From Parcubacteria bacterium C7867-006 (GTDB lineage: Bacteria > Patescibacteriota > Minisyncoccia > Phycocordibacterales > DATDWN01): DNA of 64,000 bases. A program made the translations under genes and the position numbers. Location: assembly GCA_001189155.1 (NCBI GenBank), contig LFCP01000004.1:68782-132781 (forward strand), written 5' to 3'. The notes under the pieces were generated by a model. The model was given only the letters and a program-made list of their open reading frames with translations. It searched no databases and was not told the DNA's origin. Shown here in pieces: positions 247 to 60,128 of the stretch (positions are counted from its first letter, which is position 1; every line of letters starts with the position of its first letter).

Positions 247-275
247 GGCCGGACTTGTTCCGGCTCTTTTATTTT
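247..275. terminator. rho-independent-type hairpin GCCGGA-cttgt-TCCGGC plus T-run; bidirectional between small ORF and uvrA 3' end
   Basis: perfect 6-bp GC stem, 5-nt loop, tctttt atttt run. Confidence 0.4.
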
Positions 276-2962
276 CTGTAAGCTTTATACTGTTTCAAAG
301 CTTTCTTCAAATATTTTCCTGTGTGACTCTTTTCATTGTTCGCCACCTCCTCTGGTGTGCCTTTTGCAACCAACTGTCCACCACCCGCCCCACCTTCTGG
401 ACCAATGTCCAAAATATAGTCGGCAGATTTTATGATATCCATATTGTGTTCGATAACGACAACTGTATTACCTTTATTTACCAACTTTTGCAAAATCTCA
501 ATCAACTTCTTTACATCTTCATAATGAAGACCGATAGTTGGTTCATCCAAAAGGTAAATTGTTTTCTGTAGATGTGGTCTATACAACTCAGAAGAAACTT
601 TTACTCTCTGAGCCTCTCCCCCAGATAGAGTAGTTGCCGACTGACCAAGCTCAAGATATCCAAGGCCAACATCATCCAAACATTTTAGTCTGTCATATAT
701 AGCTGGAATATCTCCAAAAAACTTCAATGCTTCTTCTACTGTCATTTTTAAAACATCGTGAATATTTTTCTTTTTATATTGAACCTCCAAAGTCTCTTTC
801 ATAAACCTCTTACCCTTACAGACATCACAAGGTACATATACTGTCGGCAAAAAGTGCATTTCAACTTCTATCATTCCATTTCCTTGGCAAGTCTCACATC
901 TTCCACCCTTAACATTGAAAGAAAACCTGTTAGCTTTCCAGCCACGAGCACGAGCCTCAGATGTTTCTGCAAACAAATCACGAATAAATGACCAACTACC
1001 TGTGTATGTCGCTGGGTTTGAACGAGGAGTTCGACCTATCGGGGACTGGTCAATCAAAATTGTTCTACCCAAATATTCTGTACCAGCAAAACTTCCGCAA
1101 TTAAATGTTTCTGCTGTTCTATATTTTCTTTCTAATCTTGCCTGAAGATTTTTATGAAGTATTTCATACACAAAAGAAGACTTACCTGAACCAGAAACTC
1201 CTGTAACAGCAACAAACCGTCCTAACGGAATATCTACGTTCATATTTTTGATATTGAAAACTTTTCCTCCACGTATTTGTATTTCACCTTTTGGATCAGT
1301 TCGTCTTTCTTCTGGAACCTCAATAACTTTATCTCCACGTAAATAATCCAATGTTACTGAACCAGATGTGTTTTTCTTTGCAGTCAACAAATCTTCTAGA
1401 TAGTCGGCTACCACAACATTACCACCATGAACCCCAGCTCCCGGGCCAATATCAACAATATAATCAGAAGCGTAAATAGTATCCTCGTCGTGCTCAACCA
1501 CCACTATAGTATTTCCAAGATTTTTTAAATCAATAAGTGTTTGTATTAGTCTATCATTGTCACGGGAATGTAATCCGATAGTTGGCTCGTCCAAAACATA
1601 AAGCGCCCCAACTAAACCAGAACCAAGCTGGCTAGCTAGACGAATACGTTGTGCCTCTCCTCCAGAAAGAGTGTGTGCTCGTCTGTCCAAAGACAAATAC
1701 TCAATACCAACGTTTAGCATAAACAGTAGTCGTGACTCGATTTCTCGCATTACAACTTTTGATATATTTTTCTCCCGCTCTGTCATTTTCAAACTTTCAA
1801 AAAACTCATATGCATCTTTAATAGACATTGCAGTTAACTCAACAATATTTTTTTTACCAATCAAAACATGCAGAGCTTCTTCTCGGAGTCTAGCACCCTT
1901 ACACTTTGGACAAGGCTCGTTACCAAAAAAGTGTCTTGTACCTAGGCCATTACATTCTGGACACGCACCGTATGGTGAGTTGAACGAAAAAAGTCTTGGC
2001 TCAACTTCTGGATATGAATACCCATCCTTCGGACAAGAAAGTTTTGAAGACATAAAAAATTCTTCAGGAATATAAGTTTTATTTTTTTCCTGACTCATAT
2101 CTCGGAACATTATTTTTACCTGACCGTCTGACTCGTTCAGAGCTTTTTCCAAATCTTCAGACAATCTTTCTTCTGCACTTTTTGTGTCAGTTTTAAAATC
2201 TAAAATAGAAATACTATCTACCAGCACATCTATAGTATGTCGTTTTGTTTTTGAAAGCTCTATTCTGTCACGAAGAGAACTTCGCACGCCATCAACTAGT
2301 ACATGTGAGTAGCCCTTACCAAGCAAATCATAAAGTAACTGATAGTACTCACCCTTTCTACCTTTTACTACGGGAGCAAAAATCTCAACATACATTGGAA
2401 GCTGAATCTTTTTTGAGTTTGCCACAAAATCTTTCTTCTTTGCCTCAACCTTTTCAAGTACAAAGTTTTTTATTTCTTCATTTGAAAGTTTTGTTATTTC
2501 ATCTCCACAAATAAGACAGTGTGGATGACCAACTCGTGAATACAAAATACGTAGATAGTCATATATTTCAGTTATGGTCGCCACTGTTGAACGAGGGTTG
2601 TTTGAACGAGACTTTTGATCAATAGAAATAGCTGGAGAAAGACCGACAATCTCATCAACATCTGGTTTCTGCATCTGTCTTAGGAACTGTCTAGCGTAGG
2701 ACGAAAGAGATTCAACGTATCTACGTTGACCTTCGGCAAAAATAGTATCGAATGCAAGCGATGACTTCCCTGAACCAGAGAGACCGGTAAAAACCACCAT
2801 CTTATTTCGTGGCATTTCTACAGTGATATTTTTAAGATTATGAGTTCTGGCTCCCTTTACTATAATCTTATCTTCGTTATTTTTATTGTCTTTTTTAACC
2901 ATATACGTAAACACAACCCCCGTTCGCTCTATAGGGTTGTTATATAAAAAGGATATTACCAC
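269..2962 (-). CDS. uvrA: excinuclease ABC subunit A UvrA (likely true start at 2902, MVKKDNK...)
   Basis: two ABC ATPase modules, [14 protein letters not shown] Walker A, zinc-finger CxxC motifs; N-terminal 20-aa extension of the ORF atypical. Confidence 0.95.
2914..2926. promoter_or_regulatory. possible LexA/Cheo-like SOS box CGAAC-N4-GTTG 12 nt upstream of the uvrA start at 2902
   Basis: CAACCCCCGTTCG resembles CGAAC-N4-GTTCG (one arm mismatch); lies inside a longer ACAACCC...GGGTTGT inverted repeat. Confidence 0.15.
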
Positions 2963-2995
2963 AGAAACAAATCAGCGACAAACAACAACGTAGAA

Positions 2996-3028
2996 GCCGG
3001 CGAGTCCTCCCAATGAAGACACGCCGGC
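2996..3028 (-). terminator. GC hairpin GCCGGCG-loop(agtcctCCCAATGAAGACA)-CGCCGGC, copy 1 of a duplicated hairpin, 9 nt after stop of small ORF 3037..3210
   Basis: 7-bp perfect stem; loop core cccaatgRagaca shared with copy at 3294..3321. Confidence 0.4.
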
Positions 3029-3036
3029 TCAACAAA

Positions 3037-3210
3037 CTATGCCCCAACAAGGGCCCTAGAACGTCCTCGAAGGCGAGGTCGAAGGTGAGAGAAAGCCTCT
3101 CTGCCGAGGCCGGGCCTCACCTCATCGAGGAGAGAGCCGGCAACACCAACGCACGCGAGGATGCAAGCGACGAGAACGGAACCTTTGACAAGCACTTCTT
3201 GGAAGTCCAT
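3037..3210 (-). CDS. small GC-rich hydrophobic protein (57 aa; MDFQEVLVKGSVLVACILACVGVAGSLLDEVRPGLGREAFSHLRPRLRGRSRALVGA)
   Basis: ATG with weak AAGGG SD; N-terminal TM-like segment; C-terminal PRLRG shared with ORF 3330..3530; followed by hairpin copy 1; upstream TTTGACG -35-like box. Confidence 0.3.
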   Translation of the reverse strand: MDFQEVLVKGSVLVACILACVGVAGSLLDEVRPGLGREAFSHLRPRLRGRSRALVGA

Positions 3211-3293
3211 GCACGGCCCTTTCGTCTAACTACCCAAAGATAATTATGTATTTTATTTATAAAAACGTCAAACAATCTTTATATAAACGAACA

Positions 3294-3321
3294 CCGGCGG
3301 CCCCCAATGGAGACACGCCGG
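3294..3321 (-). terminator. GC hairpin CCGGCG-loop(gcCCCAATGGAGACA)-CGCCGG, copy 2, 9 nt after stop of ORF 3330..3530, followed by T-rich tract
   Basis: 6-bp stem; loop motif shared with copy 1. Confidence 0.4.
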
Positions 3322-3329
3322 CAGTATAT

Positions 3330-3530
3330 CTATGTCCGAATCGCACCGCGAAGTCGAGGTGTATGCATATGGCACCTGATCCACACCCAGAAGGTAGAGA
3401 TAGAGCAATATGCGAAACACACAACAACGGCACAAAGAACATAGAAGACGATGAGGCAGATCACTCCGATGACAGTAGCTACCACTGTGGCAGCTATCAC
3501 CAAGAAAATGAGCAAGGCCTCCACGTACAT
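3330..3530 (-). CDS. small GC-rich transmembrane protein (66 aa; MYVEALLIFLVIAATVVATVIGVICLIVFYVLCAVVVCFAYCSISTFWVWIRCHMHTPRLRGAIRT)
   Basis: ATG overlaps stop of upstream ORF (TGATG coupling) with GGAG 3 nt upstream; about 35-residue hydrophobic stretch; terminator hairpin downstream. Confidence 0.35.
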   Translation of the reverse strand: MYVEALLIFLVIAATVVATVIGVICLIVFYVLCAVVVCFAYCSISTFWVWIRCHMHTPRLRGAIRT

Positions 3531-3739
3531 CAGCTCCAGTACGGAGAGTGGTCGAGCTTCGGAACCGTCCGTGGTCGAGCTTCCTCGTACCATCGTTCGG
3601 TGTGCCGGAGCACGACTTCCTTGGAAAGCGATGGCGAGTTCCACACCTCGGAGAAAGAACGCCGAGGTGCTTCGCTAACGATCACCACTCCATGAACGAC
3701 TGAAACCAGCCCGAAAAGCGCCTTAACGAGAGTTCCCAT
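3530..3739 (-). CDS. small GC-rich protein (69 aa; MGTLVKALFGLVSVVHGVVIVSEAPRRSF...) first gene of a 2-gene mini-operon
   Basis: strong SD GGGGAGGaagcggATG; N-terminal hydrophobic segment; TTGACA -35-like box at 3794..3799 just after uvrB stop. Confidence 0.4.
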   Translation of the reverse strand: MGTLVKALFGLVSVVHGVVIVSEAPRRSFSEVWNSPSLSKEVVLRHTERWYEEARPRTVPKLDHSPYWS

Positions 3740-3802
3740 CCGCTTCCTCCCCAAAGAGTGTCCTCTCTTTATTGTGTAATATTTATGATTTACTGTCAAT
3801 TA

Positions 3803-5908
3803 CTATCTCAGCAAGTCTTTGTTTCTAGGATTTACAATTTTTTTAGGTTTTTGTGACTCGAGAATTTTTTGTAGCTCAAGTATTTCATCTCTTAATATAG
3901 CGGCAGTTTCAAAATCTAATATTTTTACTGCACCATCCATTTGTTTTTCTTTCTGTCGTATTAGTTTAGCCGGATCTTTTTCTAACATTTTTTTATCAAC
4001 TTCCAACAAAGCAGAAACTGTTTTTTGATGTTCGTTTCGAAGCTGGTCAGTAATATCTTGAATTTTTTTGATAATTGTTTTTGGAGTTATGCCATGTTTT
4101 TTATTGTACTCCATCTGTAGTGTTCTACGTCTAGCAGTTTCATCTATAGCGTACTTCATAGATTTTGTAACTGTATCTGCATAAAGAATCACACGACCAT
4201 CTATGTTTCTAGCTGCACGACCAATAATCTGTATGAGTGAAGTCTCACTTCGGAGAAAACCTTCTTTATCTGCATCCAAAATTCCAATCAGTTTAACTTC
4301 TGGCAAATCCAAACCTTCTCGCAATAGATTTACACCAACAAGAACATCAAAAGTACCCCTTCGAAGATTTGTTAATATTTCAATTCTTTCTATTGTTTTG
4401 ATATCGCTATGAAGATACTCTGCCTTGATTCCCTTTTCTTTCAAATATTCACTCAGATCCTCTGCCATTTTTTTAGTTAGAGTTGTTGCGATTACCCTAC
4501 CACCATCTTTTATAGACTTCTCAGCCTCCTTTATAAAATCTTTCACCTGACCAGGATAACTCCCCTTTTCAACAATAGGTTTTACGTCTACAACTGGATC
4601 AATCAATCCTGTTGGTCGTATAACTTGTTCAACAACTTGTTCTGAATGTTCTTTTTCGTATGTACTAGGTGTAGCTGATGTGTAAATAACCTGTCCAACC
4701 CTCTCCTCAAACTCGTTGAACTTTAGAGGTCTATTGTCTTTTGCACTTGGAAGTCTGAAACCGAAATCAACTAGACTCTGTTTTCTGGAAGCATCTCCAC
4801 CGTACATCGCGCCGATTTGAGGAACTGACACATGAGACTCATCTATAACAGTCAAAAAATCTGGTGAGCCATCTTTATTGTGCGGAAAGTATGCAAGTAA
4901 TGTATCAGGAGCCTCTCCAGGTTTTTTACCAGAAAAATGTCGCGAGTAATTTTCTATTCCATTGCAATACCCCATCTCACGGATAAGTGCTAGATCATAT
5001 GTTGTGCGTCTTTTTAATCTCTCCGCTTCAAGATTTTTTCCTTCTTTCTCTAACTCCTTTAAACGTTTAGCCAATTCTGCCTTAATTGATTTAAATGCTC
5101 TCTCATTCTGCTCGTTAGTTGAAATAAAATGTTTTGCTGGAAAAAGGAAAAAAGCATCTACTTCTTTTATTATTCCACGAGTTATAGCATCAATAACTAA
5201 AATTTGTTTTATTTTACTTTCATCTATTTCAATTCGATAAATAACTTTTTCTGAAATGGGCATTATCTCTAACATATTACCTATAGCTCTGAACATTCCC
5301 GGTTTTAAGTCTGCAGTAGTTCTTTCAAAATGCACATCAATCAAGTTTCGAATAAAATCTGCTCTAGAAATTTTTTCTCCCTTACTGATTTTTACATTTA
5401 CTTTTTCATACTCAACAGGAGAACCTAAACCATAGATACAGGAAACTGACGCGACAATGATTACATCTTTTCTAGTTAAAAGAGCTTGTGTTGAAGCATG
5501 GCGAAGTCTATCTATCTCCTCATTTATCATTGCCTCTTTCTCTATGTATGTATCAGAAACTGGCATATAGGCTTCTGGCTGATAATAGTCATAATAAGAA
5601 ACAAAGTAATGCACGGCATTGTTTGGAAAAAATTCTCTATATTCCTGAGCTAGTTGTGCTGCGAGAGTTTTATTGTGAGCTATAACCAAAGTCGGCTTTT
5701 GAACCTCCTGTATAACGTTTGCAATAGTGTAAGTTTTTCCAGAACCAGTCACACCCAAAAGAGTCTGATGTTTCAGACCCTTTTTTACACCGTCGACCAA
5801 ACCCTTTATAGCTTTTGGTTGATCCCCAGCTGGAGGATATTCTCTTTTAATCTCAAATTTCATTTTCACACTATACAATAAATTTAGATATAGAAAAAGG
5901 CGACACAT
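3803..5908 (-). CDS. uvrB: excinuclease ABC subunit B UvrB (likely true start 5863, MKFEIKREYPPAGDQP)
   Basis: GVTGSGKT Walker A, helicase motifs, UvrB/UvrC interaction C-terminus; ORF-track N-terminal extension runs into a terminator hairpin loop. Confidence 0.95.
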   Translation of the reverse strand: MCRLFLYLNLLYSVKMKFEIKREYPPAGDQPKAIKGLVDGVKKGLKHQTLLGVTGSGKTYTIANVIQEVQKPTLVIAHNKTLAAQLAQEYREFFPNNAVHYFVSYYDYYQPEAYMPVSDTYIEKEAMINEEIDRLRHASTQALLTRKDVIIVASVSCIYGLGSPVEYEKVNVKISKGEKISRADFIRNLIDVHFERTTADLKPGMFRAIGNMLEIMPISEKVIYRIEIDESKIKQILVIDAITRGIIKEVDAFFLFPAKHFISTNEQNERAFKSIKAELAKRLKELEKEGKNLEAERLKRRTTYDLALIREMGYCNGIENYSRHFSGKKPGEAPDTLLAYFPHNKDGSPDFLTVIDESHVSVPQIGAMYGGDASRKQSLVDFGFRLPSAKDNRPLKFNEFEERVGQVIYTSATPSTYEKEHSEQVVEQVIRPTGLIDPVVDVKPIVEKGSYPGQVKDFIKEAEKSIKDGGRVIATTLTKKMAEDLSEYLKEKGIKAEYLHSDIKTIERIEILTNLRRGTFDVLVGVNLLREGLDLPEVKLIGILDADKEGFLRSETSLIQIIGRAARNIDGRVILYADTVTKSMKYAIDETARRRTLQMEYNKKHGITPKTIIKKIQDITDQLRNEHQKTVSALLEVDKKMLEKDPAKLIRQKEKQMDGAVKILDFETAAILRDEILELQKILESQKPKKIVNPRNKDLLR

Positions 5909-11825: not shown

Positions 11826-13070
11826 TTAGTCAATAAAGGTAAAAGCCTTTCCTTTTTTACCAGCTCTTCCTGTTCTTCCTATACGATGGACATAATCCTC
11901 ATACGTAGCTGGAATATCAAAGTTAATAACATGAGAAACTCCGGAAATGTCTAAACCTCTAGCAGCGACATCAGTTGCAACCAGCACCTGAGCCTTATCA
12001 TCTTTGAAAGTTTTTAATGCTCTTTGTCTAGCCGACTGGTTTTTGTCACCGTGAATAGATTCTGCTTTGAAACCTCTACCTTGTAGTAATGTTGTTAGCT
12101 TTTCAACTCCATGTTTTGTTCTACCAAAAATCAAAACTTTACTGAAATCTGGTTGAATTAACATTGAATGTAGAACATCTAGTTTATTTTCACCTCGATT
12201 TACTCGCACAACATCCTGATCAACATTTTTTGATGTATCTTGTGTCTTTACTGAAATAGAAACTGGATTTTTTAAGAAATCCTTTATAAGCATTTCAATC
12301 TCTCTAGATAATGTAGCTGAGAAAAACAAAGTGTGTCTGTCTTTAGGCATCATAGCCATCATAAACTTCATATCGTTTATAAATCCCATATCAAGCATTC
12401 TGTCAGCCTCATCCAAAACAACTGTTTTGAAAAATGATAGATTTAAAACTTTTCGTTCAATCAAATCTTTAAGTCTGCCTGGCGTACCAATAACAAACTC
12501 ATTTCTATATCGAAGCTGTCTTATTTGTGAACCGATAGGTGCACCTCCAACACATGAGACAGAATACAGCCCCATACCTTTTATAAAACCTTTTAGTTCA
12601 TCCTCTATTTGAAGTGCTAGCTCTCTTGTTGGACACATTATAAGAATATTTTCTTTTGGATTTGAAAGTACTTTGTGAATAAGAGGAATAAGAAAAGCAG
12701 CAGTCTTTCCTGTTCCTGTGTTTGCGATACCAACAATGTCTTCGCCTTTTAATATATGAGGAATAGCCCGATCCTGAATCGGTGTTGGATCAACATAACC
12801 TTTTTCAATAATGTTTGCTTTCAATCTTTCATCTATCAAAAAATCAGCAAACTTATGCTCAGGCACAAACTGCTCCACAGTCTCTGTTATAACTGCTTTA
12901 TTAACGAATTTAGATGGATGAATACTAGTTGAGACCCCTCGGCCTCTACCACCTCCACTTCTGTTACCACCACGAACTGGAAATCTTCCTCGACTTCCAC
13001 TTGAGCGACCTGCAAACGCAGGCTTTTTAAAAGTCCGCGTAAGCGCACCTTTCTGTATTTTTGATTGCAT
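11826..13070 (-). CDS. DEAD-box ATP-dependent RNA helicase with N-terminal RGG-rich tail
   Basis: Q-motif PTPIQ, GTGKTAAF, DEAD, SAT, HRIGRTGRAG. Confidence 0.9.
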   Translation of the reverse strand: MQSKIQKGALTRTFKKPAFAGRSSGSRGRFPVRGGNRSGGGRGRGVSTSIHPSKFVNKAVITETVEQFVPEHKFADFLIDERLKANIIEKGYVDPTPIQDRAIPHILKGEDIVGIANTGTGKTAAFLIPLIHKVLSNPKENILIMCPTRELALQIEDELKGFIKGMGLYSVSCVGGAPIGSQIRQLRYRNEFVIGTPGRLKDLIERKVLNLSFFKTVVLDEADRMLDMGFINDMKFMMAMMPKDRHTLFFSATLSREIEMLIKDFLKNPVSISVKTQDTSKNVDQDVVRVNRGENKLDVLHSMLIQPDFSKVLIFGRTKHGVEKLTTLLQGRGFKAESIHGDKNQSARQRALKTFKDDKAQVLVATDVAARGLDISGVSHVINFDIPATYEDYVHRIGRTGRAGKKGKAFTFID

Positions 13071-13188
13071 TAAATTAAATTGAGTGCGAGCCCGAAGGTC
13101 TCTTCATCTCAATTAGTAAATAAATAAGTAGAGAAGACTCAATACAAAGTACTATATACTACACAGACATTTTTGTCAATTATATCAC

Positions 13189-13217
13189 TTGACATATATC
13201 AAATAATGTCATAGAAT
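13189..13217 (+). promoter_or_regulatory. sigma70-type promoter TTGACA-17nt-TAGAAT for GC-rich gene 13297..14184
   Basis: consensus -35, 17-nt spacer, good -10, in AT-rich leader; AGGAG SD 6 nt before ATG. Confidence 0.35.
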
Positions 13218-13296
13218 TAGAAATAGATTCGTATGTAGTTGGTCGCCTCGATGACGAGGTGAGACTACAAACGAAGCTCTCTGTCAGGAGTTGTAG

Positions 13297-14184
13297 ATGC
13301 GTATCGCACGCTCGCTCGCTCTCGTTCTGTTGGTGTTTCTGTCGGCAACCAACGCTTTCGCCCAGAAGGGTGAATACGCTGTGCCGAAGGACGCCCAGCT
13401 CGAACAATATCCGGTACTCGAGGCCAACAAGCCTCTGACCGTGGTGCAGATCGCAGACATGCACTTGCATCCGATCCGGTTGGACAAACCGACCGTGGTT
13501 CAGAACCACTTCCGTGGACTACACGGAAAGGAAGGTCGATTCGTCGTCGAGACGTTGCCGAAAGGCACACTCGTTCTCGTCGACGAAAACAACAACCTCC
13601 GTTACAAGGAGGACTGCGGGAACCGGTTGGTGGAGTTCGACAATCAAGCACTCGTTCGGGGAATCATTTCCTCTGACAAGTTGTCTGAACCTGTTGTTGT
13701 CCACGATGGTGACACGCTGATTGTGTCGCCCGACAGTACGAAAGTCATCCCGGCAAAACCGATGATGAGTCTGTGGGATACAGTAGCTTCTACCGTTCGT
13801 AGAGGTGTTGAGTGGCTTACGCCATTTGCACATTTCATCGGATGGCTGCTACTTGCGATTCTCCTCTTCGGTATCATCTGGGCCGTCATCATGGCTGGCC
13901 TCGAGGATAGGGATAGGAGACGATACAATCGCAACCAGATGGTTGGTGATCAAACACACCCATCGCACCCGGCCGCGACTGTCCCGCCTCCTGCCCCAAA
14001 TGCCCCCGCAGCGACGACACCGGCAGCAGCTCCGGCCAATACTGAAAGGGCGTTTATCACCCACTCTGCTGGTAGCGGCTCAAATCCGCACCTTCTGCGG
14101 TGGGGAGGCTTGGACTTCCACAGCCTCGAGGTGGCACCGGACGGGGTTCACTCCCTGCGGTACCATCCCAGGACCAGTAAGTAG
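13297..14184 (+). CDS. GC-rich secreted, membrane-anchored protein of unknown function (signal peptide, ectodomain, one TM, Pro/Ala-rich tail)
   Basis: 295-aa ORF at about 57% GC; signal peptide MRIARSLALVLLVFLSATNAFAQ; TM LLLAILLFGIIWAVIMAGL; own promoter, SD and terminator. Confidence 0.55.
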   Translation: MRIARSLALVLLVFLSATNAFAQKGEYAVPKDAQLEQYPVLEANKPLTVVQIADMHLHPIRLDKPTVVQNHFRGLHGKEGRFVVETLPKGTLVLVDENNNLRYKEDCGNRLVEFDNQALVRGIISSDKLSEPVVVHDGDTLIVSPDSTKVIPAKPMMSLWDTVASTVRRGVEWLTPFAHFIGWLLLAILLFGIIWAVIMAGLEDRDRRRYNRNQMVGDQTHPSHPAATVPPPAPNAPAATTPAAAPANTERAFITHSAGSGSNPHLLRWGGLDFHSLEVAPDGVHSLRYHPRTSK

Positions 14185-14235
14185 ACACGAGTTCTTCCGC
14201 CACCTGACGGCATCAGGTAGAGCATTCCACTCGAC

Positions 14236-14264
14236 ACGGCAGACCAACAAGGTCTGCCGTTTTT
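14236..14264. terminator. perfect 10-bp hairpin ACGGCAGACC-aacaa-GGTCTGCCGT plus TTTT, bidirectional
   Basis: seen directly between convergent genes. Confidence 0.55.
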
Positions 14265-14276
14265 AGTACTTAAACT

Positions 14277-14786
14277 TTACCTAAAAAGTGCCCAGGATTT
14301 TTTTGCATGATCAAGATAGTAATCTAGACCAATCATACCCGCTGTTTTGTGAGCTAACATAATAAAGATAGCTAAAACCAATAACTGAGGATTTGTACTT
14401 ACTGTACCAGCAAAGAGATAGTTTAGATTCATAAACGCTCCAAATAAAGCGGCTAGGAACGTTAATGCACCGAAGATAAGGCCTAGACCTACAAGAATCT
14501 CTCCGTAGGTTATTGCATGTGACCAAATGTTCGCATATGGAAGAACTGCATGTTGCAAAAACCAAGCATACCAACCTGATACATCCGGGTGAATACCAGT
14601 TGTTTTTGCTAGCGCCCCATTTGCAAAACCAGTTATCGCAACACCAGCCTTCTCCCCAATCCAAACTGGATTAATTAATTTTTCATAACCAGCATAAAGC
14701 CATTCCCAACCAACATAAACACGAACAATTAGCCAAACCCATGAAAGTTTTGGACTAGTAAAGATAGAACTAAAAAAAGTTTTCAT
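14277..14786 (-). CDS. DoxX/DoxD-like family membrane protein
   Basis: 4 TM, DoxX-like RVYVGWEWLYAGYEKL N-terminus. Confidence 0.5.
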   Translation of the reverse strand: MKTFFSSIFTSPKLSWVWLIVRVYVGWEWLYAGYEKLINPVWIGEKAGVAITGFANGALAKTTGIHPDVSGWYAWFLQHAVLPYANIWSHAITYGEILVGLGLIFGALTFLAALFGAFMNLNYLFAGTVSTNPQLLVLAIFIMLAHKTAGMIGLDYYLDHAKKSWALFR

Positions 14787-20875: not shown

Positions 20876-23779
20876 TTATTGAGCGTTTGGATTCATTGAC
20901 CAAGGAATCAATTCTGGAAGTTGAGCCATCAACTCTGGACACTCAAGGTTATTTATCTTTGTAACTGTTGATAGATAAACTAGACCTGTTGCGCTTGTTA
21001 GTCCCCAAGGCTTTAGAACATCATCAGAATATTTTGTTTGGAAGTTTTTAACTACTCCGTATGTCATTGGTCCGTAGAAACCTGTGATAGGCAAACTTGT
21101 TCCCATATTTTTGTTCAAGAATTCTTGAAGTTTCTTAACCTGACTAGCATTGTTCTTTGAACTACCTAGTCTAAAGTGTGTATTCAAGTAAAGTCCGCAA
21201 GACTCACCTAGAACTTCACCTGCTGTAGTAGAAGCTCCCAAAACCTGACCTCCACCTCCTAGTGAACCTACAATAGGACCATTACCTCCACCTCCTCCAC
21301 TTGGTGGTGTTACTGGTGTAGGTGCTGGAATAAATGCAGCACAATCTGGGTCAGCTAGATCAACTAGTCTATCACCATCATTGTCTATACCATCAGTACA
21401 CAATGGCTGTGTGTTTTCTACTGGTTGTGCTGTAACAATAACTGTTCGTGTTGTACTAGTTGAAGCATCTTCACTGTCCATAGCTGTATAAGTAAGTGTG
21501 TATGTTCCTGGAGTTGATGTAGAAACTGTTCCAGTCACAACTATAGAGGAAGTAATATCTCCATCCTCTGGGTCTGTTGATGATGCACCTGGGTCAACAA
21601 ATGTATCACCTACTAGCAAGTTGATTGGGTTGTTTCCAAAAAGAGTAATGCTTGGTAAGTCGTTAACTGGTTTTATGTCAATAGAAACTGTTGCTGTACT
21701 ACTGTTTGTTACACCGTCGTTAGCAACAAATGTGAATGAATCAGAACCATTTTCGTTTGCATTAGGAGTATATGTAAATGCTCCTGTGTTTAAGTCAAAT
21801 GATGTAAGTGTTCCTTTTGTTGGGTTTGATGTTGTAGCAAATGTAAGTGTTTGTGCTGGAAGATCTACGTCAGTTGCAGTCATAGCTGTAGATGTTGCTG
21901 TATCCTCATCTGTTGAAACAGACAAGTCGTTTGCAACTGGTGCTTCATTTACTTCGTTAACTGTAACTTTAAAAGTTTTTGAATCCTGTAGAGCTCCATC
22001 AGTAACAGATGCTGTGAAGTTATAAACTCCAGGACCTTGGTCCTCTGCTGGTGTCCAATCAAATATTCCTGTTACAGAATCTAGTGTTACTCCAGATGGA
22101 ACTGAACCAACTAGAGAGTAAACTAAAGTATCAAGTGGACTATCTAGGTCATTAGCAGAAATAGTGAAGTTTAGATTACTCAATTCATTTACAACATAAT
22201 CAGAAATTACATTCAATATAGGTGCATTATCATTTACGTTTATAGTAACTGTTGCTGAACTAGTTAAAGTTCCGTCAGAAACCTCGTATGTGAATGAGTC
22301 TAGTCCTTGATAGTCAGTTGCTGGTGTATATGTGAACGATCCATCTGGATTCATTATTACACTAGCCCCAACAACTATTGGTTGAGTTAGAATAGAAAAT
22401 GTAAGTGTGTTTGGTAGAAGAGGAACCAAATCAGAGTCTGTAGCAACTACAGTGTCATTTACTGCTGTATTTTGGTGAGTTGATACTGTAAGAGACTGAG
22501 CAACTGGTGCAACATTTACTTCATTTACAACAACTGTTACTGCTTTTGTATCTGTTCCTCCATTTCCATCAGAAACTAATACATTAAAGTTATATGTTGC
22601 TGGGCCCTGATTCTCTGCTGGTGTCCAAGTAAATACTCCTGTAGAAGAATCTATACCGGCTCCTGTTGGTTCACCAGAAAGTGAGTATGTCATTACATCT
22701 CCAGAATCTACATCAGTAGCAGAAGCTGTAAATGATAGATTTGTAAGTTCATCTAGAGCCACAGATGTTGTTGTGCTTATAGAAAGTACTGGGTTATCAT
22801 TTACGGAGTTAACTGTAATAGAAACTGTAGCAGTATTACTATCTACTGTTCCATCATAAACTTTGAAGTTAAATGAATCAGAACCGTTGAAGTCTGCATT
22901 TGGAGTATATGTGAATGCACCTGTAGTTGAGTTGAAAGATGTTATTGTTCCGTTTGCTGGGTTTGAAGTTGTTGCGTATGTAAGAGAGTCTCCATCTATA
23001 TCAGAAGCTGCAAGGTTTGAAGAAACATCTGTATCTTCATTTATAGATATAGCAGTACTTGATGCAACTGGTGCATCGTTCTCTGGAGTAACAGTGATTG
23101 TTGTTGTTGCAACATTACTGTATCCAAGTCCATCAGAAACCTTGAATGAGAATGCGTCTCCTCCGTTATAGTTTAATGACGGAGTATATGTAACTTGATT
23201 ACCTGAAACAGAACCTAGAGTTCCGTGTGTAGGACCGTTTACAATGAAATATGTAAGAGGTTGTGCTGGAGTATCAGAATCTGTAGCTGTCATAGTCACA
23301 ACCTTTGCTGTATCTTCAGGTGTTGTTACTGAACTACCAGTTGCAGCAGGAGCTGTATTTGGAGGACAAGTTGGAACTATTTGAGTAGCATCAATCTGAT
23401 TATCTTTACCATTTGGTTTTGAGTGGTATACCATTACAGAAACAGTAGTTGTTGGAGTTGATGAATAGTGATGTGGTCCAGCTGAAAAAGTAAAACTGTA
23501 TGGTGAAGTTGTATCTCCTCCTAGGTCTAATGGAATATTTGTCTCTATGTCTCCCGTATTCCAAACAACCTGAACGTGATACTGGTCTATTTGACTACCA
23601 TTTGCTGGAGTTACAGTACCACTACCAGTTACTGTTAAATCAGTACCTAAACATGGATTTCCTGACGTAACAACAGAATCAATCGAAGCAGTTGGTTGAT
23701 CAGCTAATGCAACACTTGGGATGAGTGTGTATGGCACCGCCAAAACCAGAGTCAGAACTAACGAAGTTATTTTTTTCAT
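20876..23779 (-). CDS. large secreted adhesin-like protein: tandem cadherin-like/VCBS domains (VNDAPV, VNEAPVA, VNDNPV), DNDGD calcium motif, C-terminal peptidoglycan-binding domain
   Basis: signal peptide, >6 internally repeated about 95-aa modules, PG_binding_1-like C-terminus (LQEFLNK...GFYGPMTYGVVKNFQ). Confidence 0.7.
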   Translation of the reverse strand: MKKITSLVLTLVLAVPYTLIPSVALADQPTASIDSVVTSGNPCLGTDLTVTGSGTVTPANGSQIDQYHVQVVWNTGDIETNIPLDLGGDTTSPYSFTFSAGPHHYSSTPTTTVSVMVYHSKPNGKDNQIDATQIVPTCPPNTAPAATGSSVTTPEDTAKVVTMTATDSDTPAQPLTYFIVNGPTHGTLGSVSGNQVTYTPSLNYNGGDAFSFKVSDGLGYSNVATTTITVTPENDAPVASSTAISINEDTDVSSNLAASDIDGDSLTYATTSNPANGTITSFNSTTGAFTYTPNADFNGSDSFNFKVYDGTVDSNTATVSITVNSVNDNPVLSISTTTSVALDELTNLSFTASATDVDSGDVMTYSLSGEPTGAGIDSSTGVFTWTPAENQGPATYNFNVLVSDGNGGTDTKAVTVVVNEVNVAPVAQSLTVSTHQNTAVNDTVVATDSDLVPLLPNTLTFSILTQPIVVGASVIMNPDGSFTYTPATDYQGLDSFTYEVSDGTLTSSATVTINVNDNAPILNVISDYVVNELSNLNFTISANDLDSPLDTLVYSLVGSVPSGVTLDSVTGIFDWTPAEDQGPGVYNFTASVTDGALQDSKTFKVTVNEVNEAPVANDLSVSTDEDTATSTAMTATDVDLPAQTLTFATTSNPTKGTLTSFDLNTGAFTYTPNANENGSDSFTFVANDGVTNSSTATVSIDIKPVNDLPSITLFGNNPINLLVGDTFVDPGASSTDPEDGDITSSIVVTGTVSTSTPGTYTLTYTAMDSEDASTSTTRTVIVTAQPVENTQPLCTDGIDNDGDRLVDLADPDCAAFIPAPTPVTPPSGGGGGNGPIVGSLGGGGQVLGASTTAGEVLGESCGLYLNTHFRLGSSKNNASQVKKLQEFLNKNMGTSLPITGFYGPMTYGVVKNFQTKYSDDVLKPWGLTSATGLVYLSTVTKINNLECPELMAQLPELIPWSMNPNAQ

Positions 23780-24126
23780 AATTTTTATAAATTTAATAAT
23801 TTTTATAACGCAAAAACCGGCCTAAAAAGACCGGTTATGCTATTAGCTCCCCACAGCCCAAGCGTCCAAATACAGACTGTGGTTCATCGCCTTCTTTAGT
23901 AACAACTAAACCCTAAATATCTAACTAAATCGTATTCTACACTAACTTAAAATATCGTCAATGGTTGAGCAAATTCACTAAATTTTATTAAAATTGATTA
24001 AAAAATTAAATTATTATTATAAAAATATCATTTTTTTTAATTTTTTTAAAAAATAATGAAAATTTAGAAATTATAAAACTTCACAACGATGTGAAGTTTT
24101 ATAAAACAAAAACTAGAAAACTTTTG

Positions 24127-26751: not shown

Positions 26752-26864
26752 AATTAATTAAATTCTATTTAATACCTAATTAAATAATAAAAACTGTCTC
26801 GCACGGTACTGTAGACGATTATACCATCTATTCATTACAAAGTTTTACATCTTATTAACAGTAT

Positions 26865-26902
26865 AAAAAACAACCTCGCGGACTCCCGAAGGAGCCGCGA
26901 GG
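26865..26902 (-). terminator. GC hairpin CCTCGCGGCTCC-ttcg-GGAGTCCGCGAGG plus T6 (on minus strand)
   Basis: 12-bp stem with one bulge, 4-nt loop, T-run. Confidence 0.55.
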
Positions 26903-26919
26903 CGTTGAGACGAGTGAAA

Positions 26920-27516
26920 CTAGAACACGTCGCCCGAGGTCCCCTCCGAAGAGTTGACCCAATTGTCGCTGATACCGTGGTACACCCACCCCCAGAATTC
27001 GTATGAGTAGGTGTTGACCGTGAAGTACGTAGTGAGCCAGGAAGCGTAACCGGGACAGTTGCCATTGATGTCGCAGGCGTAGTCCACGATGCCGATGTTA
27101 CCCTTGGTCTTCCAGGCCGGCGCCGGGTTGAGAACTCCGTCGATGATGAGCACGTACCCGCCCTCGAACGTTCCGTCTTCCTCACCGGTAAGGGGTCCGT
27201 TGTTGCCGGGGCTGGTCTGCCCAGCCTGGGCGTCGAACTGGCCGGAGTTCCGAACCACCGCGCAGTACTTGCCGTCGGGCTGAGCCCACACCTGGATCGT
27301 ACGGTTGAGATCGTCGAAGGCCCAGTTGTTGCCGGCGAGACCGGAATCCACGTCATGGATGACCTTACCCGTAACGTTGATGACCGGGGGGCCAACACGC
27401 TGGCAGGTGCCAGCGTTGACCTGGGTACCCCAGTTGAGGTTCTCGCGAGGATCAGCATTCGCATGGGAGACGACCCCCAGGACACTGGCCAGGACAGCGC
27501 ACCAAATAAACTTCAT
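26920..27516 (-). CDS. GC-rich secreted Trp/Gly/Asn-rich protein of unknown function (198 aa)
   Basis: about 58% GC; signal peptide MKFIWCAVLASVLGVVSHANA; AAGGAG SD; own terminator; overlapping alternative-frame ORF 26835..27485 is Arg/Pro-rich junk. Confidence 0.5.
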   Translation of the reverse strand: MKFIWCAVLASVLGVVSHANADPRENLNWGTQVNAGTCQRVGPPVINVTGKVIHDVDSGLAGNNWAFDDLNRTIQVWAQPDGKYCAVVRNSGQFDAQAGQTSPGNNGPLTGEEDGTFEGGYVLIIDGVLNPAPAWKTKGNIGIVDYACDINGNCPGYASWLTTYFTVNTYSYEFWGWVYHGISDNWVNSSEGTSGDVF

Positions 27517-27656
27517 TCTTCAAGCTCCTTGGAACAAAAGCGACTGGATGCCGCTTACCAAGGGTAAACTTAACAAAACTAGACACTAAAGTCAATATTT
27601 AGTCAACAAAAAATCCCCTTTCGGAGTTTTTTGTGTTCAATCTATTTTTTTTATAA

Positions 27657-33991: not shown

Positions 33992-34046
33992 AATTGATTG
34001 TTAAGCATTATCGTGTTTGATACTATTTATATAGAGGAGGTTGGAG

Positions 34047-34310
34047 ATGAATGGGACCACGTCTGAATTGTACGGAGACTCCCAGTTGATCTACCTCGGC
34101 GAAAATCTCGTGAGGATGTTCAGGGGCGGCCGACACGTAGAGATTGGAGAGAGGAGAATTCTCGCGACCAGCCACAGACAAGTTGAGGTCGTCAAGATCA
34201 AGAAGCCTCAGAACCCATATGACGAGCATGAACCAATCGTCGAGGTGGAGTGCACTCTACCTAGTGGCGACAAGATTAGAAGTCTCATCAGATTTGATGA
34301 GTTGAGGTGA
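34047..34310 (+). CDS. GC-rich small soluble protein (87 aa) of unknown function
   Basis: about 55% GC island; strong SD GAGGAGG 6 nt before ATG at 34047; followed by hairpin AGGGGGT...ACCCCTCT plus T-run. Confidence 0.4.
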   Translation: MNGTTSELYGDSQLIYLGENLVRMFRGGRHVEIGERRILATSHRQVEVVKIKKPQNPYDEHEPIVEVECTLPSGDKIRSLIRFDELR

Positions 34311-34349
34311 ACTAAGGGGGTAACGCGTAATGGCGACCCCTCTTCGTTT

Positions 34350-50847: not shown

Positions 50848-50921
50848 TGGGAGATCGTCTAACGGTAGGACAGAGGCCTTTGAAGCCTTTAATTGGGGTT
50901 CGATTCCCTGTCTCCCAGCCA
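50848..50921 (+). tRNA. tRNA-Gln (anticodon UUG), CCA encoded
   Basis: cloverleaf folded by hand: acceptor U1-A72...7 bp, D-loop GG, AC loop cUUUGaa, T-loop TTCGATT, discriminator G, CCA. Confidence 0.85.
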
Positions 50922-59223: not shown

Positions 59224-59552
59224 AATATTTTATTGCTAACTAATAAGAGAGAAGGGCTTTTAAAGAAAAAGCCACTTCTTATAACTCTGCAGTAAACAAA
59301 GTTATCCGAATGAGTGACATTTTAGGTAGACTATCTAGGTTTGTATTCAAATTATAGAACGATAGGGGCCAAAAAGTCGATATGACTTATCCACAGATAT
59401 TTAATCATGTCAAGAGTGTAAAGAATGTAAATCGCTTCGCAGGGATTGAGTGATGTGATAGGGTGGAAAAATAGCACCCAAAAGTGCTATGATAAGAGCA
59501 CAATTTAATAAGTATAAGTAGCCTAAACCTAGTTTTCACTAGGCATGGTGAA

Positions 59553-59690
59553 AAGTCCTATCAAGCATAAAGAACCCATCATGGGGTCGCTTGATAGGCC
59601 ATATCGGGAAACCGGTATGAGAGACTTCGGTCTCTACCCGTGGTGGGCTTTTTGTGTATCTGCCACGGCATTAGCAAGTCCTATCAAGCA
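59553..59690 (+). promoter_or_regulatory. structured leader: 15-nt direct repeat AAGTCCTATCAAGCA (59553 and 59676) plus inverted partner GCTTGATAGG (59589) and hairpin GAGAGAC-ttcg-GTCTCT followed by T5
   Basis: seen directly; second repeat covers the RBS of the HNH gene; middle arm can pair with either flanking copy. Confidence 0.3.
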
Positions 59691-59693
59691 AAA

Positions 59694-60128
59694 ATGATAA
59701 ATTTTGAACATCCCGAAGATCGGGAGTATTTTGCTAATTTATTAGCAAATGGAGATGTAAAAAAATTAGACAGAGATTTTTCTGAGCTTTTTGATTTTGA
59801 ACATCTTGCAATGAAAAGATGGAGATTTAATAAGATTAGGAAAAAGATTTTAAAAGAACTTATTGAGAAATACGGCAATGAGTGTCAGTTAAAAATCCAT
59901 CCTGATTGTAGTAAGGTGCAAAAATTTGAACCTGATCACATTATTCCGCTAGCTTCAAATGAGTTAAATAAAAAATTAAGAAAAATGGCTCGTTTTTCCA
60001 GTGAGAAAGTTGAGCAACAGAGTTTCGGATCAAATAATATGAAAAACCTCACTTTGGCATGTAAAAGATGTAATGCTTTCAAAAAACATCGTATGTTTTT
60101 GTCAATAAATTTTGGTCTTCAAAAATGA
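59694..60128 (+). CDS. HNH endonuclease
   Basis: C..C...EPDHIIP...N...C..CN HNH fold motifs; start taken at ATG 59694 downstream of the repeat-bearing leader. Confidence 0.7.
   Translation: MINFEHPEDREYFANLLANGDVKKLDRDFSELFDFEHLAMKRWRFNKIRKKILKELIEKYGNECQLKIHPDCSKVQKFEPDHIIPLASNELNKKLRKMARFSSEKVEQQSFGSNNMKNLTLACKRCNAFKKHRMFLSINFGLQK

Follow-up and report, generated by a model that had tools for sequence, protein, structure and literature searches.

Atypical GC content is routinely taken as evidence of horizontal gene transfer (HGT). Does this reading hold for a 20-point GC island, a single gene, in Parcubacteria bacterium C7867-006, and if not, what keeps the gene GC-rich? The gene occupies positions 13297..14184 of the 64,000-nucleotide stretch of contig LFCP01000004.1 analysed here (the window), and its product is AB201_01860 of that organism at 100% identity. 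The genome (652,563 bp, 36% GC) comes from a Hanford aquifer metagenome (PMC4508563). We find that the island is a conserved syntenic gene, which is very probably a native, long-resident gene of the Parcubacteria (Paceibacteria-type) lineage and not a recent import. For its composition, the best explanation we can offer, which we regard as evenly poised between right and wrong, is that a native Parcubacteria membrane-protein gene is under selection for a GC-rich, strongly folded transcript.

A GC-rich unit bounded by its predicted transcript

The gene and its flanking signals are laid out as follows (UTR, untranslated region; SD, Shine-Dalgarno sequence; GC3, GC content at third codon positions).

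13151..13179, minus strand: divergent sigma-70-like promoter TTGACA-17-TATAGT, which would serve the DEAD-box helicase gene at 11826..13070
13189..13217, plus strand: sigma-70-type promoter TTGACA-17-TAGAAT of the target gene, with 11/12 consensus matches
13229..13274, plus strand: 46-nt 5'UTR stem-loop of three stacked helices, with a GG bulge and a conserved UUGGUC...GUGAGA core
13275..13296, plus strand: predicted weak hairpin that would sequester the SD through pairing with CUCU(C)
13286-13290, plus strand: SD AGGAG, 6 nt 5' of the ATG at 13297
13297..14184, plus strand: coding sequence of 295 amino acids (aa), GC 0.564, GC3 0.635, predicted folding density -0.41 kcal/mol/nt
14188..14233, plus strand: 3'UTR hairpin with the core CCUGA-N5-UCAGG at 14203-14217
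14236..14265, plus strand: intrinsic terminator with a 10-bp stem (14236-14260; 7 GC pairs), a 5-nt loop and then a T run

An earlier sequence-only reading had described a complete, self-contained expression unit for a secreted single-pass membrane protein without an assigned family, and this anatomy is right: the promoter, the SD, the 295-aa open reading frame (ORF) and the 10-bp hairpin terminator with its T run are all present where that reading had put them. The promoter and terminator have the usual features of their kinds (a 16-18 nt spacer, and a GC-rich stem followed by a T run), and their activity is predicted. A single promoter match of this quality is not beyond chance (2 were found against 1.6 expected in shuffles), but the hexamers, their spacing and their distance to the gene are kept at 11 orthologous loci. 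From this promoter, transcription is predicted to start at about 13224-13226. The GGCAG...CUGCC core of the terminator is likewise kept across orthologues.

Mean GC of the window is 35.7%. The coding sequence stands at 0.564 against 0.354, and its GC3 of 0.635 compares with 0.251 for 51 other window ORFs; across the other approximately 60 window ORFs GC3 ranges from 0.17 to 0.37, and the gene is one of only four GC3 outlier spots within 64 kb. Codons ending in C and those ending in G are both in excess, and GC is raised at the first and second codon positions as well. The codon-usage comparison that the earlier reading had called for finds the gene strongly atypical, with genome-rare codons dominating: their shares in the gene and in the genome are 57% versus 10% for CCG, 26% versus 2% for CGG, 25% versus 2% for TCG, 38% versus 6% for CTC and 29% versus 4% for ACG.

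This enrichment is not confined to the window. At 19 of the 20 loci with a measurable background the gene is richer in GC than its neighbours (0.47-0.62, standard deviation 0.043, versus 0.33-0.56), and the regression of gene GC on background GC has a slope of 0.43. Nor is it confined to the coding sequence. Mean GC at 11 orthologous loci rises from 0.25 in the promoter to 0.51 in the 5'UTR and 0.57 in the coding sequence, then falls to 0.51 in the 3'UTR and to 0.29 over the following 60 nt. The GC-rich block thus coincides with the predicted transcript, from 5'UTR to terminator. In the window the transcribed leader has 48% GC, and the AT-rich part is the promoter only (approximately 0.20-0.29). 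Of the earlier picture of a GC-rich coding part (56.4%) behind an AT-rich leader, the first half therefore stands and the second does not: the leader belongs to the conserved GC-rich unit.

Synteny, divergence and origin of the gene

In sister genomes (L001, GCA_964390465.1; L004/5; L007-9; L012; L021) the gene lies in the same place, between DEAD-box helicase and DoxX/HI0933-like genes. The promoter, 5'UTR hairpin, 3'UTR and terminator are recognisably shared by these genomes and are better conserved than the coding body. Between sister genomes, flanking proteins are 80-93% identical, and their synonymous sites are saturated (synonymous divergence, dS, 1.1 to >2). Pairwise identities of the N-terminal domain (N-domain) and of the adjacent helicase are correlated (r 0.69 over 21 pairs). 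Because the gene is syntenic in the sister genomes, diverges together with its neighbour, remains GC-rich past synonymous saturation and has no donor or vehicle that we could find, we do not regard it as a recent import.

Searches for such a vehicle were negative. Phage, plasmid and IMG/VR viral-contig searches gave no homologue of the protein; there are no mobility genes beside the gene at any locus examined, where the neighbours are housekeeping genes; and no tRNA or repeat borders flank it, the only tRNA of the window being at 50848. No donor lineage with homologues of native composition was found among the 20 loci, at 19 of which, as said, the gene exceeds its background. In other clades the gene is found near the murE/ftsI/mraZ cluster, RNase J, nusA, topA/dprA or uvrD, always as a single unit, and gene neighbourhood across clades gives no conserved functional partner beyond the helicase, within one clade. 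All named genome loci that carry the gene are metagenome-assembled genomes of the candidate phyla radiation (CPR)/Parcubacteria type.

The proposal of the sequence-only reading that a foreign or host-derived coding segment sits behind a local promoter fails on these results: locus, promoter, hairpin and terminator are the same in sister genomes, the N-domain co-diverges, the orthologues are GC-rich although the flanks are saturated, phage, plasmid and viral homologues are absent, and no mobility genes adjoin. That reading had named AT-rich homologues in sister genomes as the finding that would speak against transfer. None was seen; what occupies the same place is GC-rich homologues, an outcome that it had not foreseen. 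Compared with a horizontally acquired island, the gene shows the same sharp single-gene GC step of approximately 20 points with its own promoter and terminator, and its composition is indeed atypical. It differs in that it is syntenic, without mobility genes or tRNA/repeat borders, and un-ameliorated despite saturation, and its distribution is not patchy, as the gene is at the same locus in L001, L004, L007, L012 and L021.

The window contains a useful positive control for recent transfer. This is a GC-rich ORF at 26920..27516 on the minus strand (GC 0.60; unit 26835-27520), which encodes a secreted protein of 198 aa and comes with a promoter-like site, an SD and a perfect terminator. The family to which it belongs numbers 86+ proteins and shows native GC both in an AT-rich CPR genome (L034; GC 0.39, GC3 0.31) and in a 60% GC genome (L035; GC 0.61), and the predicted folding of its mRNA is not in excess (z +0.47). 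Judged by its composition and relatives, it looks like an ordinary recent horizontal acquisition, the very case that the sequence-only reading had made for the target gene.

An older transfer is a separate matter. The gene might have been acquired long ago from a GC-rich donor, for example a host, and have ameliorated incompletely behind a locally recruited promoter. Its strongly atypical composition would be consistent with this, as would the sub-threshold similarity of its ectodomain to the family DUF6777 (described below) and the other GC-rich single-gene islands of the window and sister genomes, which look like imports or variable insertions. However, the locus, promoter, leader and terminator are common to genomes with saturated flanks, distant members at other loci are GC-rich too, and no donor-type homologue with a native GC-rich context was found outside CPR-like contigs. 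The rate of decay points the same way: from a starting GC3 of 1.0, and judging by flank dS and an equilibrium of approximately 0.25, a neutral import would be expected to have fallen to approximately 0.4-0.5 since the split between the window and L001, whereas six lineages show 0.58-0.75. Ancient acquisition would also leave unexplained the excess of folding over synonymous shuffles that is described next. We consider it very unlikely.

Composition-based HGT callers serve to infer exchange with hosts in the CPR/Patescibacteria, and the gene is a concrete counter-example to them from within that lineage.

Predicted folding of the transcript and what may select it

Folding was compared with synonymous-codon shuffles that keep both the protein and its codon usage; all folding energies are predicted. 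The coding RNA folds 35-50 kcal/mol better than such shuffles, with z-scores of -4.5 to -6.6 in nine of ten orthologues from AT-rich genomes. Shuffling within 50-codon blocks gives -4.8 to -7.2, and dinucleotide shuffling gives -5.1. By contrast, 12 other genes of the window have a mean z of -0.75 (standard deviation 0.93, minimum -2.6). Folding density is -0.406 +/- 0.036 kcal/mol/nt for the gene in 19 genomes, versus -0.259 for its neighbours, and whereas the density of the neighbours follows genome GC closely (r -0.94), that of the gene does so only weakly (r -0.42).

The 5' end of the predicted transcript carries a conserved structure. The 46-nt stem-loop, which begins 3-5 nt past the predicted transcription start, has a minimum free energy of -32.7 kcal/mol (z -3.35). 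Among 12 aligned sequences 90% of the cells are paired, versus 39-51% with slid partners, and compensatory changes are seen at 14 of the 19 pairs; none of 500 shuffles attains such values. At four positions the commonest pair is U-G or G-U. Rfam 15 gives nothing at gathering threshold over 13050-14320, with chance-level matches only (E >= 0.3). A covariance model of the leader matches only these 12 leaders, upstream of the gene, in 311 kb; as there are no further copies in the window or the compared loci, there is no sign of a regulon. We propose the stem-loop as a new candidate cis-acting 5'UTR motif supported by covariation.

Two further UTR elements follow. Pairing of the SD with the upstream CUCU(C) is predicted in about half of the orthologues (-6 to -12 kcal/mol), which is only suggestive of SD sequestration. 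Downstream of the coding sequence, the 3'UTR hairpin is conserved, with compensatory changes in two sister genomes (L007 and L021), and the 3'UTR as a whole has a folding z of -5.2.

These observations are the basis of the explanation that we favour, selection for a GC-rich, strongly folded transcript. Under it, the gene would encode a type-I single-pass membrane protein (cleavable signal peptide, small beta ectodomain, transmembrane helix, Pro/Ala linker and cytoplasmic beta domain) whose transcript would be kept at approximately 50-60% GC from its predicted start to the terminator, with predicted RNA folding beyond the needs of protein sequence, codon usage and base composition. Selection would act on the nucleic acid itself, and not through local mutation or conversion bias, and RNA rather than DNA would be the level selected. 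The most probable target would be a compact, heavily base-paired mRNA with a 5'-terminal stem-loop as cap and a 3' hairpin and terminator as close. The benefit would be resistance to ribonucleases and/or restrained and regulated translation of the surface protein, so that the purpose would most likely be mRNA stability and/or translational control.

Several results weigh against this explanation. Among eight GC-rich control genes z ranges from +0.7 to -3.3, so that some controls reach about -3. Family members in two GC-rich genomes (L002 and L017) have z of approximately -1 and so no excess; this fits a fixed set point of folding density, and equally fits the absence of any special constraint in those genomes. 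The orthologue z-scores are not independent, as the sequences are related, and the energies beneath them are predictions throughout. The structure conservation index, computed for the N-domain from a codon alignment of ten sequences, is 0.16, versus 0.08 in shuffles. Polarised synonymous substitutions in the gene comprise 14 strong-to-weak (S>W) and 9 weak-to-strong (W>S) changes at GC3 0.71, and in the flanking genes W>S changes exceed S>W changes at GC3 0.29; the counts are too few and too parsimony-biased to show a GC-rich equilibrium. Finally, the antisense strand is also over-folded (z -1.5 to -6.0).

The last point means that the signal is one of Watson-Crick self-complementarity, and that folding alone does not identify the strand, or RNA as against DNA. 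Near-equal excess on the two strands would be consistent with a constraint on the DNA or on an antisense transcript. The constrained molecule might then be, for instance, a locally stable duplex, single-stranded DNA that forms hairpins or an antisense RNA that overlaps the gene. The GC block, however, spans the sense start to the sense terminator as predicted, the conserved 5' hairpin uses G-U pairs, which serve in the sense RNA only, and a scan for minus-strand promoter-like sites found none inside or downstream of the gene, the only one being the helicase promoter upstream. Sense RNA is favoured because of these leader G-U pairs and the transcript-shaped boundaries, and a constraint on DNA or antisense RNA appears highly improbable.

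Two further accounts of the folding signal were considered and rejected. A single conserved mRNA architecture was dropped in view of a structure conservation index of only 0.16, a few hairpins being all that stands out from otherwise generic structure; enrichment of the palindromic tetranucleotide TCGA as the main driver has a z of only 2.4. Within the coding sequence, at 13594-13614, the most conserved protein motif, (I/L)RYK(A/E)DCGN, is encoded by codons that pair into a 5-bp hairpin, as they do in almost all orthologues. The hairpin takes one of two registers, UCCGC/GCGGA or CCUCC/GGAGG, according to whether the motif has Ala or Glu. GC-rich codons may produce such pairing by coincidence, or protein and RNA constraints may be coupled here.

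Selection could instead operate on codons, with genome-rare codons throttling or pacing translation for secretion or membrane insertion, or tying expression to tRNAs. The dominance of CCG, CGG, TCG, CTC and ACG would agree with this. Ribosomal protein genes at the related CPR locus L034 are not GC3-rich, so that high GC3 is not a signature of high expression in that genome, and this too is in keeping with a codon-level effect. Against it, the GC enrichment extends to codon positions 1 and 2 and to both UTRs, and a shuffle that preserves codon usage removes approximately 40 kcal/mol of folding, which means that codon identity alone does not account for the folding signal. We judge codon-level selection to be improbable as the main cause.

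The gene is also mosaic. Two family members (P0002 and P0003) match at 91% identity over the N-domain and at 29% over the C-terminal domain (C-domain), and for another two (P0009 and P0005) the respective figures are 51% and 91%; outside the N-domain, identity is unrelated to that of the flanking helicase (r 0.09). On these discordant histories the gene recombines between lineages, its N- and C-domains exchanging partners. Such recombination fits an exposed, fast-evolving protein. It also keeps alive a reading in which frequent recombination or allelic replacement, using the promoter/leader and terminator as flanks, raises GC through GC-biased conversion or a GC-rich allele pool, with folding as a by-product. 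The mosaicism, the lack of correlation with the helicase and the better conservation of the UTRs than of the coding body all accord with it, as does the report that most detected Patescibacteria transfers run between Patescibacteria (PMC12455944). However, a pool of AT-rich genomes cannot alone give a mean of 57% GC, and neither a z of -5 against synonymous shuffles nor GC-rich UTRs bounded by the transcript are predicted. Biased gene conversion is reported to shift bacterial GC3 by a few percentage points, whereas the excess here is 30-45. Recombination as the source of the composition is unlikely.

Selection on the transcript has partial precedents. Stem-loops at the 5' end stabilise mRNAs in the Escherichia coli ompA leader and in the Bacillus subtilis aprE and ermC leaders. 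Stabilisers of this kind have a stable hairpin within about 4 nt of the 5' end. The transcript described here is similar in that a stable hairpin would lie a few nucleotides from the 5' end, as predicted from the -10 box, and is followed by the SD, in that it is an envelope-protein mRNA, and in that it is closed by a 3' hairpin and terminator. It differs in having no sequence or Rfam relationship to those leaders and in being over-folded and GC-enriched across the whole coding region. A second parallel is with structural RNA genes (ribosomal and transfer RNA), the GC content of which is buffered against genome GC, as the GC content and folding density of this gene are nearly independent of it. 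Here the differences are that the gene codes for a protein (conserved motifs, a ratio of nonsynonymous to synonymous divergence, dN/dS, of approximately 0.3 and confidently predicted domains) and that its RNA structure, for the most part, is not conserved in position.

A bolder and decidedly more tentative version of selection on the transcript can be put forward. Long-term selection may have the transcript as its object and not the protein alone, and the gene may specify an armoured or dual-function mRNA of a fast-evolving surface protein, held at near-fixed GC and folding density across genomes of 33-56% GC, with GC enrichment and codon arrangement as the means, much as in a structural RNA, and with the new 5'UTR motif as one of its parts. 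Its translation may perhaps depend on the divergently encoded DEAD-box helicase in the cold aquifer. The -35 boxes of the helicase and target promoters stand back to back, 9 bp apart, and the resulting TGTCAA-N9-TTGACA layout is kept at orthologous loci of the leader-bearing clade. We had considered this palindrome as a repressor operator and dropped the idea, two back-to-back -35 boxes of divergent promoters being simpler. Through such promoters an RNA helicase might conceivably be regulated together with a hyper-structured mRNA.

If selection on the mRNA is indeed at work, the gene would provide a natural, testable case of whole-transcript structural selection in a bacterium, with a built-in comparative series of orthologues in genomes of 33-56% GC. 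Structured leaders, stabilised mRNAs and DUF-type surface proteins are all kinds already known; for the compositional behaviour we found no prior description in the literature.

The encoded protein family and other features of the window

The protein is predicted to comprise the following parts.

13297..13362, plus strand: signal peptide, residues 1-22, with the cleavage-type motif AFA/QK (the slash marks the cleavage point), read from sequence features only
13363..13650, plus strand: extracytoplasmic beta domain, residues 23-118, with the motif RYK(A/E)DCGNRL and a single invariant Cys107
13825..13902, plus strand: transmembrane helix, residues 177-202, an AlphaFold2 helix followed by the positively charged EDRDRRRYNR
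13951..14040, plus strand: disordered Pro/Ala-rich cytoplasmic linker, residues 219-248, with a predicted local distance difference test score (pLDDT) <50
14044..14172, plus strand: conserved C-terminal four-strand beta domain, residues 250-292 (43 residues), pLDDT 86-89

The signal-peptide-like N terminus reads MRIARSLALVLLVFLSATNAFA/QK, and in a 13-sequence family alignment A22 is invariant and Q23 nearly so. The ectodomain as a whole comprises residues 23-176. The signal peptide with its AxA motif, the one transmembrane helix and its positive C-side flank, as judged by sequence features and the AlphaFold2 helix, are those of a Sec-type type-I protein, and would place the N terminus outside and the C terminus inside the cell. 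AlphaFold2 models the full-length protein with a pLDDT of 70.6 and the N-domain alone with a pLDDT of 80.5 and a predicted template modelling score (pTM) of 0.73. The signal peptide, approximately 150-aa ectodomain, single transmembrane segment and Pro/Ala-rich tail had all been recognised earlier; the conserved 43-residue beta domain at the C terminus had been missed. At least two allelic types of this domain exist, and these have been shuffled against the N-domain.

A word-indexed search gave 12 relatives, and a profile search of the same word-indexed protein database had only known members among the matches listed. A full hidden Markov model search with an alignment of the relatives expanded the family to 226 clusters (50% identity), of which 74 have E below 1e-30. 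A common layout is found in most full-length members: an AxA/Q signal peptide, a beta domain of approximately 95 residues that holds the highly conserved RYK(A/E)DCGNRL and the single invariant cysteine, a disordered linker, a hydrophobic helix, an arginine block, a Pro/Ala-rich disordered stretch and a C-terminal beta domain of approximately 43 residues. The family is uncharacterised and is seen here almost only in Parcubacteria/CPR-type genomes. The gene evolves fast: dN is 0.35-0.54, against 0.06-0.15 in most flank comparisons, the highest flank value being 0.30 for a VTT-domain gene in the comparison with L007. Two objects are thereby defined in uncultivated, episymbiont-like bacteria, a surface-protein family with recombining domains and a candidate cis-acting RNA motif.

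Scans of the protein against Pfam, NCBIfam and PHROGs gave nothing significant. Matches to CpaB, GltJ and Alt-like proteins were set aside (E >= 0.01), and PDB profile matches to TrwE/VirB10 (E 0.002-0.09) cover the transmembrane and Pro-rich low-complexity part only and were judged compositional. Small beta-barrel wall-binding domains (SH3b-like, such as the NlpC/P60 N-terminal and TagH C-terminal domains) were used as comparison systems, and no significant structural or sequence match to an SH3b-like domain was obtained. The nearest family is Pfam DUF6777 (PF20568), which we take to be largely actinobacterial: 42 of 65 family members match the centre of its profile (positions approximately 55-115 of 163), over the beta core and RYKxDCGN motif, with a best E of 3.8e-6. 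The target protein itself has no match, however, only about one-third of the profile is covered, and the relatives scored 14-23 bits, all bit scores examined lying below the 27-bit Pfam cut-off. These matches suggest a distant relationship to DUF6777, short of membership. As DUF6777 has no known function, they add no mechanism, and literature searches turned up no account of the target family, of DUF6777 or of genes that stay GC-rich in CPR genomes. From its architecture, a role in surface recognition or signalling would be a guess.

Other GC-rich spots were noted in passing. Between uvrA (269..2962, minus strand) and uvrB (3803..5908, minus strand), the stretch at 2990-3760 is GC-rich (0.5-0.63), has no Rfam match and contains two apparent minus-strand mini-units, with three small ORFs: one of approximately 69 aa (3533..3739), which overlaps by ATGA a hydrophobic one of 66 aa (3333..3530), and a further hydrophobic one of 57 aa (3037..3210). 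The same 20-nt terminator-arm sequence occurs at both 3009-3028 and 3303-3322. A small GC3-outlier ORF at 34041-34345 on the plus strand (87-89 aa, GC3 0.64) comes with a terminator hairpin and a GAGGAGG SD and lacks a signal peptide and any NCBIfam or PHROGs match; its mRNA folds with a z of -0.84. Sister genomes carry another such ORF upstream of a pseudouridine synthase gene (1847-2605 in L001 and 604-1311 in L004; GC3 0.64 and 0.73), which in L001 is also downstream of TGT and has a folding z of -3.3. As the window has no such ORF there, GC-rich single-gene insertions seem to be common and variable in the lineage.

Two known RNA motifs also lie in the window. A cyclic-di-GMP-II riboswitch at 23820-23903 on the minus strand (63 bits, above the gathering score) is directly 5' of the gene for a 967-aa signal-peptide protein (20876..23779, minus strand) and is unexpected in a reduced Parcubacteria genome. 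A LOOT RNA motif (RF03000, 88 bits) at 59520-59635 on the plus strand is located between a minus-strand gene cluster and the ORF at 59640..60128.

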